DNA of 7,601 nucleotides. Source: Octopus sinensis. Taxonomy: Eukaryota. Location: assembly GCF_006345805.1 (NCBI RefSeq), contig NW_021828829.1, positions 1 to 7,601 on the forward strand. The letters are read 5' to 3'. The position numbers were made by a program, and so were the translations under genes. Shown in pieces: positions 2,811-7,601 of this stretch (positions are counted from its first letter, which is position 1; every line of letters begins with the position of its first letter). The notes beneath the pieces were generated by a model that saw nothing but the letters and a program-made list of their open reading frames with translations, was not told where the DNA came from and made no database searches.

Positions 2811-3451
2811 AATAAAGGAGGGTGGGAAAAAGAAGCTTTGAAAGATAAAGTGACAGGGCAAATAGACAAGATGATATACAAACAATATGAAGCACAGAGA
2901 GAAAATAACATATATATATATATATATATATTATGTAGGATGTAAACGAGAGGGAAGTAGAGGTGCGGAGAGAGAGAATGTGATTGGTAGATGAGTAGGG
3001 GATGGCTGAGGTGAAGGGAAAAGGTTGAGAAGAAAGCTGAGTCGATATTTCTAGAAGGAAAGGCGAGATAGAAATGATATAATATGAAAAATCAAGATTG
3101 ATGAAAGAATGTTAGAATGAGAGGAATAATGGAATAATATCTTGGAGAAGGGAAGACTCAGGGACGAGTAAGTGTGAAAGTGTGATAGTGGCATGTGATA
3201 CATACATACATCCATACATACATACATATATGTATGCATAGCTGGGTGTGTATATGTGTTTTTATATATGTATACACAGGTAAGGATATATGTATGCACG
3301 TGCAGGAAAAACTTTATATACACATAAGCTTGAACGTATATAAGTGCATAATAGATTTATACATACATGGATATATATGATTATATTATGTACATAAGAA
3401 TGTATATATATATAATGTAAATAATAAATAATATAATATATATATATGCAT

Positions 3452-3748
3452 ATACACGCTACGCGCACCTTCGTTTTGGGATCATCACTACTTTCTTATC
3501 TCCCCTTCTTCCTAGCTCTTCTGTCTGACCACCTCTGTCCGGCATTCGACATGATAGATCACTAGCCACTATACCTTTTTCTATTTTCTCTCCCTGTTTA
3601 TTTCTGTGTTCCTTTCTGCTGAAGAGCGTAGGCTCGAAACGTAAAAGACTTTCTCACTTCCCGGGCGTTAAACTAATACATCTGTTTGTTGTTTATACAC
3701 CCGTCTTCATCTTTTGTTTTGTTTGTTTTTCTGTAAATACCATCTATA
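3452..3748 (+). mobile_element. Short pyrimidine-rich interspersed repeat carrying a hammerhead-like motif; probable Penelope-like terminal repeat remnant
   Basis: A ~300-bp complex-sequence island between TA-rich tracts, containing the 3612-3647 motif followed by a T-rich tail. Family identity is inferred from the known association of minimal hammerheads with Penelope-like elements. Boundaries are approximate. Confidence 0.5.
3612..3647 (+). ncRNA. Minimal type I hammerhead-like motif (variant core)
   Basis: Stem I CTTT(3612-3615)/AAAG(3644-3647); core CTGCTGA (3616-3622, A6C); extra A3623; stem II GAGC-GTAG-GCTC (3624-3635); GAAAC-GT-A with a loopless ACGT palindrome and GUA triplet (3641-3643). 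An overlapping canonical CTGAAGA box (3619-3625) gives an alternative register. Confidence 0.6.
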
Positions 3749-3766
3749 TATCTATATTTATATATA

Positions 3767-4313
3767 TACATTTAAACACATTAAAATGTTTCCATCATAG
3801 GAATCCCTTACGCTAGAAAGAACAGCTTTAAATGTACACTGTATTTTATATGAAAAATATATAGTCACTTGAGTAATTTTTCTATACGCTAGGCCACTGG
3901 TAGTAAAAATTTCTAAAATCTTTATTACTCTGATATTATTAATTATGTATAATGATTTCTGGAAGATTCGTTCGAAAAAATTGCCGGCAATCTTTAGCTG
4001 TCGACAAAAATAACTGCGCTTGCCCGGTGGATTTGAAAAAATTAAAATGTATAAGCAAGAGACACATGCTGGATTGGTCTCGTGTTTATATGTTAAATCT
4101 TGGCGTACCTGTTGAAGAAGACGTCGCCTAGCAAATTATTTTATTTGCTAAAATAAGTCAGAAACCATGGTCCAGGAAATAGATGATAAATGTTATTTTT
4201 CATTCCCTTCAAGAATTTATCCCTAATTAGTGGTTTTGGATTTTAGCTGTTCTTTCTAGCGTAAGAGATTCCTATGATGGAAACCTTTAATGTGTTTAAA
4301 TGTACACTGTATT
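3767..4313 (+). mobile_element. Penelope-like element pseudo-LTR / retrozyme-like non-autonomous unit with inverted 5' duplication
   Basis: ~60-bp inverted repeat 3767-3827 / 4245-4304 (about 3 differences). Exact 19-bp direct repeat TTTAAATGTACACTGTATT at 3827-3845 and 4295-4313 (period 468 bp). Internal hammerhead at 4108-4176. Both flanks are (TA)n. No ORF. Confidence 0.65.
4108..4176 (+). ncRNA. Type I hammerhead ribozyme-like motif (C3U core variant, palindromic stem III)
   Basis: Stem I CCTG(4108-4111)/CAGG(4173-4176); core TTGAAGA (4112-4118); A4119; stem II GAC/GTC (4120-4122/4157-4159) enclosing an 8-bp hairpin TAGCAAAT/ATTTGCTA; A4160; GAAAC (4161-4165); CATG; GTC triplet (4170-4172). 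Predicted cut after 4172. Confidence 0.75.
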
Positions 4314-4315
4314 AT

Positions 4316-4357
<42 letters not shown>

Positions 4358-4459
4358 TAGAATATATATATATATATAACTATATTATGTATGTTTGTAT
4401 GTATGTATGTATGTATGTGTATGTATGTATGTATGTATGTATGTATATATGTATGTATG
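4313..4459. repeat. Compound (TA)n + (TATG)n microsatellite
   Basis: Direct reading. Confidence 0.97.
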
Positions 4460-4591: not shown

Positions 4592-5148
4592 TGTGTCAGA
4601 TCACTTTCGAGTGCTACTGGTAACATATAACCCAGTACAACCTGTTGCATGGTCGGTTCGTCGGCGACTAAACCGGCAACCCCACCAAGCTTGCTTGGTG
4701 AGGAGGGTGTTTATTGGACACCCTGCGGGATGAAAAATAAAACCCGTCAAAGGGCGGAGGAACTCTTGAGAGTCAACGGCCAACCAATAAATGTGTTAAG
4801 GCTGTATCATGCGCGGGGACATAGAAATAATCGGACTGAATACCCGATCGCGCGGTTAAACCATTGGGAGTGAAGGACTCCTAGCCTTTGTTAGGGCATC
4901 TTTCTAGGAGAAGGTAACTCAGGTAACTGGGATAACTCCGACATAAAACCTGCTGCTCAGTGGTTACCAATGATGTTGACTTGTTCTTCTTTTCGGATTA
5001 TGGCTACTGTTGCTTAGTGAGTGGGATTGACTCAGTGCATAGCCTTTCCCCACTTAAAAAAAATTTCTTGCACAGCCATTGCACGATAACAACATTGATT
5101 AATCTTCGTGCAATGTCCATACTCGATAAGGAGGGGGCAGCCACCACC
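4592..5148 (+). mobile_element. Probable 5' UTR and first codons of an RTE-type LINE (structured, higher-GC block)
   Basis: Chain of hairpins at 4602-4782. GGGCATCTTTCTAGGAGAAGGTAACTC...AAAACC (4894-4950) resembles a motif I recall from RTE 5' regions (GGCAACC..CTAGGAGAAGGAAAACTC..AAACC). Candidate ATG at 5113 ([12 protein letters not shown]) is cut off by a microsatellite. Same strand as the downstream RT. Confidence 0.5.
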
Positions 5149-5229
5149 ATGTATGTATATATGTATGTATATATATATGTATATATATGTATATATGTAT
5201 ATATGTATGTGTGTATATATGTATATATG

Positions 5230-5286
<57 letters not shown>

Positions 5287-5457
5287 GCATGCACTTATAT
5301 ATACGACGGGTTTCTTCCAGTTTCCATCTACTAAATCCACCCGTAATTTTTTGGGTGGTCCGAGGCTATAGAAGAAGCTTGCCCAAGGCGCCACACAGTG
5401 GGACTGAACCCGGAATCGTGTGGCTGGGAAGCAAGCGTATTACCACACAATCGCCTG
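5149..5457 (-). mobile_element. Same SINE family, 5' half only (tRNA head, CORE region, expanded microsatellite); 3' tail absent
   Basis: 5302-5457 matches 1369-1530 (TACGACGGG..CAGTTTCC..CGAGGCTAT..CAAGG..CAGTGGGACTGAACCCGGAA..TACCACACA). To the left of the (TA/TATG)n tract at 5149-5300 there is no SINE tail sequence. Confidence 0.85.
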
Positions 5458-6150: not shown

Positions 6151-6206
6151 TATAAGAATTTGTTGTTAAAATTTGTGCGCATTGAATCGGTTGTACTTGT
6201 ACAATT

Positions 6207-6409
6207 CCTTTACTCGTTTCAGTCATTTGACTGTGGCCATGCTGGAGCACCGCCTTTAGTTGAACGAATCGACCTCAGGACTTGTTCTTTGTAAGCCTAG
6301 TACTTATTCTGTCGGTCTGTTTTGCCAAAACTGCTCAGATACAGGGACGTAAGCACAGCAACATCGGTTGTCAAGCTATGATGGGGGGGGGGCAAATACA
6401 GACACACAA

Positions 6410-6443
<34 letters not shown>

Positions 6444-6517
6444 GACAGGCTTCTTTCAGTTTCCGTCTACTAAATCCACTCACAAGTTTTTAGTCTGTCC
6501 GAGGCTATAGTAGAAGA
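6207..6517 (-). mobile_element. Same SINE family, 3' part only; tRNA head lost at a junction with the LINE RT
   Basis: Matches 1107-1443 (GTTTCAGTCA..TGGCCAT..CTGGAGCACCGCCTTTAGT..AAGCCTAGTACTTATTCT..TCGGTTGTCAAG..AAATCCACTCACAAG..CGAGGCTATAGTAGAAGA), then switches abruptly to LINE coding sequence. Carries ~16 bp (6328-6343) that is missing from the first copy. Confidence 0.9.
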
Positions 6518-7601
6518 ACTAACAGCAGCCACCAAGCAACTAAAAGCCTCGAAAGCATTTGGTCCCGACAACATCCCGGCTATAATTTGGAAGGATGAGA
6601 TTTCACCCACTTTTGCTCAACTCTGCAACCACACACTTTCCACCTTGTCGCTCCAAAGATTTGGCACCAATCTCAAATGATTCCAATACCCAAAAAAGGC
6701 GATTTATCCCTCGTCACCAACTACAGGGGTATATCTCTAATGTCAATTGCTGCAAAACTGTACAACAAACTGATCCTAAATCGTCTTGTCCTTTTTGTTG
6801 AACCTTTGCTCCGAAAGAACCAAAATGGATTCAGACATGGGCGCTCAACGCTGAGCCAGATACTATGCCTGCGCAGACTTATTGAAGAATCAAAAGCATT
6901 TAATCACGATCTTGCAATGGTATTTGTAGACTTTTCTAAAGCGTTCGACTCTGTAGATAGGTACAAGTTGTTTGAAATCCTTAAGCTCTATGGGATACCA
7001 GACAAAATCATTTCTGCCATCAAGGTCCTCTACACAGATACGTCTTCAACCATCTTAACTCCTGACGGAGAAACATCATATTTCTCAATCAAAGCCGGAA
7101 TACTGCAGGGAGACACACTCGCCCCATTTCTTTTCATCATTGTTGTTGATTATGTGCTACGTATGTCAGTTGATACCATCTCTGGCAAGGGCTTTGAAAT
7201 AAAACCAAGAAGAAGTTCCAGACACCCAGCTGAGTACTTGACAGACACTGACTTTGCTGACGACATCGCTCTTATCAGTGATTCTCTCTCCAATGCCCAG
7301 TCTCTTTTACAATCTCTTGAACAAGCCTCAAATTGTTAGGTCTTTACCTCAATGAGGCCAAACTGAATACATAAACAAGTGCTGTCCAACAGTGATTGCA
7401 TCATCCATACTCTCAACAATGCACCTTAAATATGGTTTCTGATTATAAATATCTTGGGTCATACATATCATCATCTGGAAAAGACTTTCTAACTAGAAAG
7501 GGTATGGCCTGGTCAGCCTGTAATGACATGCATAAGATCTGGTCATCAAATCTAAGTAGAGACTTCAAACTTAAGATCTTCAAAGCCACAGTCGAACCAA
7601 T
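6513..7601 (+). pseudogene. Non-LTR retrotransposon (LINE, RTE clade) reverse transcriptase region; 5'-truncated, frameshifted, continues past the window end
   Basis: ORF 6677-7339 has the RT motifs IPIPKKGD, NYRGISL, QNGFRHGRST, FVDFSKAFDSV, GILQGDTLAPFLF and DFADD. Upstream in another frame (6513-6597): EELTAATKQLKASKAFGPDNIPAIIWKD (pre-RT GPD motif). Downstream in shifted frames: GLYLNEAK, TEYINK and (7432-7599) MVSDYKYLGSYISSSGKDFLTRKGMAWSACNDMHKIWSSNLSRDFKLKIFKATVEP. RTE assignment is from motif style, not a search. Confidence 0.95.

Follow-up and report, generated by a model that had tools for sequence, protein, structure and literature searches.

The window analysed here, a stretch of 7,601 nucleotides of Octopus sinensis DNA, contains at 3767-4313 a repeat unit that begins and ends with the same short sequence, is preceded by an inverted copy of its own 3' end and is embedded in (TA)n repeats. 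This arrangement raises the question of what kind of element was inserted, from which template it was copied and by which route. The features on which the answer depends are the following.

about 3745-3766, no strand: left, degenerate part of the (TA)n target, which is the TA tail of the upstream repeat (sequence)
3767-3827, minus strand: inverted, 5'-truncated copy of the element's 3' end (matching 4245-4304), head-to-head with the direct unit (58/61 identity; joint in three of four sequencing runs)
3827-3845, plus strand: first copy of the 19-bp terminal redundancy (exact match)
3827-4294, plus strand: 468-bp non-coding monomer (period; family coverage in all bins in all four runs)
3885-3893, plus strand: predicted to form a 9-bp helix with 4255-4263 (pair probability 0.94 in the circular fold, prediction only)
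4108-4176, plus strand: predicted minimal type I hammerhead, cut after 4172 (descriptor match, folding, family letters, published consensus)
4230-4243, plus strand: predicted anti-hammerhead strand, pairing with 4155-4168 (pair probabilities 0.80-0.89, prediction only)
4295-4313, plus strand: second copy of the 19-bp repeat, with 4305-4313 forming a 9-nt 'tail' at the right end only (repeat and arm alignment)
4314-4378, no strand: part of the (TA)n target on the right side, running into (TATG)n up to about 4459 (sequence; TA/TATG array at 4313-4458)

Anatomy of the locus

The terminal redundancy and the inverted copy that the sequence-only reading had described were both recovered. The direct repeat is exact (3827-3845 = 4295-4313) with a period of 468, while in 2000 dinucleotide shuffles of 3827-4313 no exact repeat exceeded 14 nt and 0 reached 19 nt. 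With blastn the match stretches to 24 of 25 positions, its right boundary being blurred by the microsatellite. The inverted arm, aligned as 3767-3827 against 4245-4304, gives an E value of 3.5e-22 and overlaps the direct unit by a single nucleotide, at 3827. Both outer ends of the element adjoin TA repeats, degenerate (TA)n on the left and the TA/TATG array on the right, in agreement with the claimed location inside (TA)n. The short arm ends at the TGTA of 4301-4304 and the right end lies two bases past the TGTA of 4308-4311, so placed that it carries 9 nt absent from the left arm. The GC content over 3767-4313 is 32%, and an AT-rich, microsatellite target of the kind used in insertions of Penelope-like elements (PLEs) was found, an observation that applies to this locus only.

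One further candidate feature was rejected: a degenerate long inverted repeat (3846-3960 against 4176-4294) is equalled by shuffles (631/1000).

Other parts of the window are also rich in repeats. A decayed LINE-type reverse transcriptase at 6474-7601 on the plus strand (Pfam RVT_1, E 1e-28), which we take to be RTE-like, carries frameshifts and runs off the window; it has 1486 homologues, with a sea cucumber sequence at 58% among the 120 listed. Two families of SINE-like repeats, related to each other and with 76-90% likeness over the best segments, are present in several copies at 1106-1520, 5290-5450 and 6206-6516, each interrupted by CA/TA microsatellites. Between the TA arrays, the higher-GC, non-microsatellite stretch at 4600-5150, for which Pfam returned nothing at cut-off for one frame, is probably another repeat.

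An abundant repeat family and its coding potential

Contigs of four public sequencing runs, X1, X2, X4 and X11 (2851, 1953, 2153 and 94 contigs), were aligned to 3827-4313 at 80% likeness; the details of the family rest on the best 40 of 185 differences, 15 of 60 joints, 12 of 28 inserted-letter rows and 32 of 7277 pieces. The run search itself revealed parts of the stretch in 20 of the 24 runs listed (9 studies, four organism labels), with shares below 0.2 in 13 of those 20, one of which is among the four aligned, and half of its words in none. None of these 20 is recorded as RNA, which says nothing about expression, and X11 is RNA by guess only. Pattern scans for copies or a linked ORF, two of metagenome contigs, two of viral contigs and one of prokaryote genomes, gave 0 matches; these are non-animal collections and carry little weight here.

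In run X1, the depth summed over the unit, which is not a copy number, ranges from 1,600 to 172,000, compared with 42-61 for the eight long pieces listed for that run; the 468-bp family is very abundant, orders of magnitude above a single copy. The inversion joint of the studied locus (3828/4249) was found in three of the four runs, as one contig each at depths of 42, 16 and 46. Since this is roughly single-locus depth while the family is far deeper, the joint is real and belongs to the locus, and it is not a family terminus. At least five other inversion joints, between opposite strands, lie at other positions among the 15 of 60 joints shown.

The suggestion that the unit comes from a circularly permuted or tandem sequence received partial support, as other copies run head-to-tail across the ends of the studied copy. 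A joint leading from 4284 to 3831 was found in runs X2 and X4, with a short side of 33-36 letters, and four rows (among 12 of 28) continue from 4313 into 3858-3879 through letters resembling those from 3846 onward, one of them at depth 272. Four further rows going back only to 3827-3834 were left uncounted, because the shared 19-mer could explain them. The listed pieces cover 3838-3982, 3891-4076, 3925-4206 and 4014-4313, and in this way every part of a 468-nt circle is bridged in some copy. Among the contigs listed for the four runs, none contains a complete unit or a pair of hammerheads.

Between 4105 and 3945, across the junction, the depth stays high; at 3846-3945 it equals the hammerhead level and exceeds that of much of 3963-4098 by a factor of ten or more. 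Such a profile is not expected from simple 5' truncation starting at 4313. Diverged subfamilies, with homologous loose ends at 4105, account for part of the profile; alternatively, many copies end near 3945 and the studied copy is a permutation of those. Variants at 3885, 4085, 4101 and 4112 have similar shares in the three deep runs (17-46%) and 63-76% in X11.

The claim that the unit has no ORF stands for conserved frames. The longest ATG-initiated ORF has 59 codons, a length reached in 218 of 2000 shuffles, but the minus strand has an unusually long frame, with 123 codons and no stop (5 of 2000 shuffles). When family letters were put by hand into the known triplet phases of this frame, those that prevail in the family, at 3867-3868 with 90-99% of depth and at 4095 with 67-98%, created in-frame stops; because most family copies close the frame, we treat it as an accident of the studied copy. 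As a candidate gene it was rejected, Pfam giving DUF5418 below cut-off only and most copies carrying stops. Pfam returned nothing at cut-off for the two longest frames of the unit, and the reverse transcriptase plus GIY-YIG ORF by which an autonomous PLE is recognised is absent from the 468 bp.

A predicted minimal hammerhead and its folding context

The hammerhead attributed to the unit could be placed at 4108-4176, in a type I topology with a short helix I of 4 bp (4108-4111/4173-4176). The core at 4112-4118 retains G8 and departs from the CUGANGA/GAAA pattern by a U at position 3, whereas C3 accounts for 17-63% of family depth. This C3 letter, the variant at 4112, has 17-28% of depth in the three deep runs and 63% in X11, the higher share there resting on 4 contigs and being a weak hint; most of the family depth has U3. 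Together with those at 3885, 4085 and 4101, the variant hints at a subfamily with the canonical C3 core. An extra A4119 follows A9, and helix II (4120-4124/4155-4159) is opened by the pair G4120-C4159 (G10.1-C11.1) and closed by an 8-bp hairpin cap. It has 3 bp in the studied copy and 5 bp with the family letter T4123, which holds 97-100% of family depth in all four runs. An additional A4160 precedes the GAAA at 4161-4164, helix III is an 8-nt palindrome (4164-4171), and a GUC triplet occupies the NUH site. The palindrome is predicted to form a self-duplex at -11.2 kcal/mol, and PLE hammerhead variants reportedly cleave as dimers, according to one paper.

A type I descriptor, written after the motif had been seen, matched the plus strand of the unit once, with its core at 4112, and also matched 1 of 5000 unit shuffles. 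A loosened descriptor, consisting of the published PLE consensus with one core mismatch and an extra base before GAAA allowed, found sites at 939, 3616 and 4112 in the window and in 0 of 300 block-shuffled windows. Rfam searches of the whole window and of 3780-4310 returned no hammerhead, only low-complexity matches. According to the available parts of PMC4209133, the PLE consensus (Fig. S3) has a short helix I, an additional nucleotide following A9, a helix II that begins with a G-C pair, and a palindromic helix III; in the accessible alignment of the same source, a U3/G8 core occurs in one PLE-linked Saccoglossus row and an A before GAAA in 1 of 56 rows. Judged by its letters, the putative motif at 4108-4176 fits this published minimal-hammerhead consensus with two deviations, both of which have precedent in the alignment. 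PLE minimal hammerheads are described there, in the part available, as working poorly and as dimers. Cleavage is predicted for the motif at 4108-4176 only in a dimer or when assisted by protein, and in the studied copy weakly if at all.

RNA folding did not favour the hammerhead. The isolated hammerhead fold lies 0.4 kcal/mol above the minimum, and in the folded monomer the hammerhead helices have pair probabilities of 0.00-0.01, because 4155-4168 is predicted to pair with 4230-4243 instead. The family letter T4241C (39-81% of depth) turns a G.U into a G-C pair and would strengthen this competing helix. If the RNA is a tandem or a circle, the predicted helix 3885-3893/4255-4263 would enclose both inferred priming sites. 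In that helix, a compensatory pair would arise from T3885C (23-76% of depth) and G4263, the latter seen in loose-end consensuses, provided that the two occur in the same copies. The global fold stability of the unit is unremarkable (z -1.77), and a bacterial promoter scan, irrelevant here, stayed at chance level.

Two other hammerhead-like motifs were seen in the window. The one at 3612-3644, in a repeat of about 3450-3745, is a second minimal PLE-type motif with 4 bp in each of helices I and II, a palindromic helix III, a GUA site and one core mismatch at A6. As the studied element lies in the TA tail of this repeat, one PLE-type element appears to be nested at the end of another. In the third, at 935-975, the core boxes are intact and GAAA is again preceded by the extra A; helix II has 2 bp, and the cut site is occupied by a G that does not allow cleavage. 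This motif is probably a decayed PLE-type relic.

Proposed insertion mechanism and probable relation to Penelope-like elements

We regard it as probable that the locus is an insertion of an abundant 468-bp non-coding hammerhead repeat, likely a non-autonomous PLE derivative, mobilised in trans by the reverse transcriptase/GIY-YIG nuclease of a PLE from a source RNA longer than one unit, with two adjacent primings in (TA)n. A non-autonomous Penelope-type retroelement copied from such an RNA had already been proposed, and the PLE-type motif, the copies reading through the termini and the locus-level inverted arm all speak for it. In this scheme, a source with at least partial tandem structure would give rise to an RNA of more than unit length, which could be a linear transcript produced by read-through or a circle formed by hammerhead cleavage and ligation. 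The PLE protein would nick both strands of the (TA)n tract. From each nick, reverse transcription would be primed within the RNA, at one of two neighbouring sites that end in TGTA (4304; 4311-4313), with the help of TA microhomology. The long cDNA would comprise one unit plus 19 nt and pass through the uncleaved hammerhead, the short one would stop after 60 nt, and the two truncated cDNA ends would be joined head-to-head with a 1-nt overlap.

In unit coordinates, 3827 corresponds to 4295 of an upstream unit, so that the long copy ends 10 nt inside the site at which the short arm would have been primed. This position fits twin priming, for which a linear RNA would have to measure at least 537 nt, and it also fits one lap of a circle; the balance between them is nearly even, with a slight lean towards the linear RNA. 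Twin priming is an L1-type process. Our literature search returned no description of the 468-bp family, or of twin priming for Penelope; it did not extend to repeat libraries (Repbase, Dfam, an Octopus vulgaris library), in which the family may already be catalogued. Both arms of the locus carry the same minority family letters, at 4265 and 4282, which suggests one source, and the three differences between the arms suggest that the insertion is of some age.

The scheme draws on what is described for PLEs. According to the available parts of PMC8557442, PMC3846280 and PMC2377424, PLE insertions frequently take the form of a partial tandem that has an inverted, 5'-truncated copy at its 5' end and a tail on one side, and they show a preference for (TA)n. 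As far as the accessible text of PMC11167929 goes, the purified protein of the PLE Poseidon cleaves AT-rich DNA on both strands and extends each of them; it begins copying at internal positions of its RNA, at two neighbouring sites which set the limits of the tail, and takes RNA that has not been cleaved as its template. Pseudo-LTR sequences alone were able to mobilise unrelated DNA in trans (PMC3846280, in part), and recently active Penelope families are reported from octopus in the available portion of PMC13282606.

The strongest alternative keeps the same family but attributes the inversion to fold-back, in which the cDNA end anneals to its own start and copies it; this is the cause that the sequence-only reading had favoured, out of three routes by which the inversion could have come about. 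For head-to-head PLE inversions whose junctions are palindromic, an origin by self-priming has been put forward (PMC3846280, available part); short palindromes flank the junction here, and the two arms have minority alleles in common. However, the arm stops at 4304, at a TGTA abutting the TA target and 9 nt short of the end of the long copy, as if it had been primed separately, the exact overlap at the junction is only 1 nt, and extension of two strands has support in vitro (PMC11167929, accessible text). Since the TGTA/TA ends of the arms fit two primed ends better, we set fold-back aside as the unlikely, though still serious, route.

A second and less probable alternative, which we doubt, is that the locus is the truncated 3' end (pseudo-LTR) of an autonomous PLE with no separate short unit, the 19-bp match being an internal repeat of the pseudo-LTR. 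Most PLE hammerheads are indeed single motifs in truncated copies, according to the part of PMC4209133 available, and two whole units were seen in no listed contig. Against this, some copies join 4313 to 3846-type sequence and others run from 3891 through 4206, so that the 468-nt circle closes without room for an ORF; one-base indels are common in 3990-4036 among family copies, and the Pfam result for the two longest frames points the same way.

A rolling-circle DNA element of the non-autonomous Helitron/Helentron type, or a satellite monomer, with a chance or passenger hammerhead, is very unlikely. Helitron/Helentron-type elements form tandems, and this reading could appeal to the head-to-tail joints of other copies, a short hairpin close to the 3' terminus (4269-4282) and an inverted pair inside the unit. 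Helitron-type ends read TC...CTRR; the ends of the unit do not, the hammerhead fits the PLE consensus with helix support at the family level, and variable inverted arms are a PLE hallmark. Poorer still are the prospects of a MITE with 60-bp terminal inverted repeats inserted in TA, a reading that the sequence-only reading had named as its own refutation and that the contigs largely refute. Its long inverted repeats at the ends, TA flanks and lack of an ORF are set against an inversion joint orders of magnitude below the depth of the family, and the redundancy and the hammerhead would be left unexplained. Because inversion joints differ between copies and copies read through the termini, the element is not a MITE with fixed ends, and fixed terminal inverted repeats shared between the copies were not found. 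Least credible of all is a 449-bp insert whose flanking 19-bp direct repeats would be its target-site duplication, or else an assembly artefact: the 19-mer is family sequence (deep coverage at 4295-4313) and lies partly inside the inverted arm, and the inversion joint occurs in contigs of three runs from three studies, one of which may be the window's own source.

With insertion by two primings from a PLE-type source as the preferred reading, comparison with known systems leads to two described groups. In the available parts of PMC8557442, PMC3846280, PMC2377424 and PMC11167929, insertions of endonuclease-containing PLEs share with it the head-to-head inverted truncated arm, the extension at one end, the partial-tandem redundancy and the (TA)n target, and their 3' ends likewise lie downstream of an uncleaved hammerhead. 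These PLEs carry a reverse transcriptase/GIY-YIG ORF and an extension of 30-40 nt (the tail length also given in the accessible part of PMC8557442), whereas the studied unit is without such an ORF and has a one-sided extension of 9 nt (19-nt redundancy). By our analysis, the architecture is an already described PLE insertion pattern and less unusual than had been implied.

The other group comprises the non-LTR retrozymes of animals, which, in the parts available of PMC7229834 and bioRxiv 10.64898/2026.07.22.740005, resemble the 468-bp unit in being non-coding and low in GC, with one type I hammerhead, and in occurring commonly as monomers. They range from 51 to 972 bp, which includes 468 bp, and are proposed there to be non-autonomous PLE derivatives. 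The unit shows all of their marks: it is non-coding, is a few hundred base pairs long, has a GC content of 32%, below their limit of 45-50%, and carries a single predicted type I hammerhead. In the same partial sources, retrozymes also form tandems with two hammerheads and carry a canonical fast hammerhead, in contrast to the monomer at the studied locus and its minimal PLE-type motif. The PLE-associated hammerhead Dwi_HHR2 of Drosophila willistoni, with a palindromic helix III in a non-coding unit of about 450 bp (PMC4209133, Fig. S5, as available), is likened to the unit by description only; it bears the labels of SINEs and of a tandem array with as many as 85 units, and belongs to a different host. 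The 468-bp unit is likely a PLE-mobilised non-coding unit, that is, a non-LTR retrozyme.

A more far-reaching proposal, which we offer tentatively, is that of a retrozyme family of thousands of copies whose insertions record how PLEs copy their templates, by two primings on one RNA longer than a unit. The helix at 4230-4243 would switch the hammerhead off, so that it would be cut only in nascent or dimeric RNA, and the C3-core subfamily would be the transcribed master.

The mechanism of retrozyme mobilisation is left open in the available text of bioRxiv 10.64898/2026.07.22.740005, which sampled 31 vertebrates, 3 insects and 1 coral and, in that text, builds its case on distribution and phylogeny and makes no use of insertion anatomy. 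So far, animal retrozymes have been linked to PLEs mainly through shared hammerheads, co-occurrence and phylogeny, and a short, high-copy family with PLE-specific footprints (inverted arm, tail, TA target) would be structural evidence for mobilisation in trans. The studied locus alone is an aged copy of a known kind of element, and its value lies in offering a test system for the form of the template. PLEs of 3 kb rarely allow circular and linear tandem templates to be told apart by the ends of their copies; as the present unit is only 468 bp long, many copies should exceed one unit and their ends can be used for this test. If the insertions do record PLE copying, the statistics of copy ends would decide between a circle and a linear tandem for the templates of both PLEs and retrozymes.
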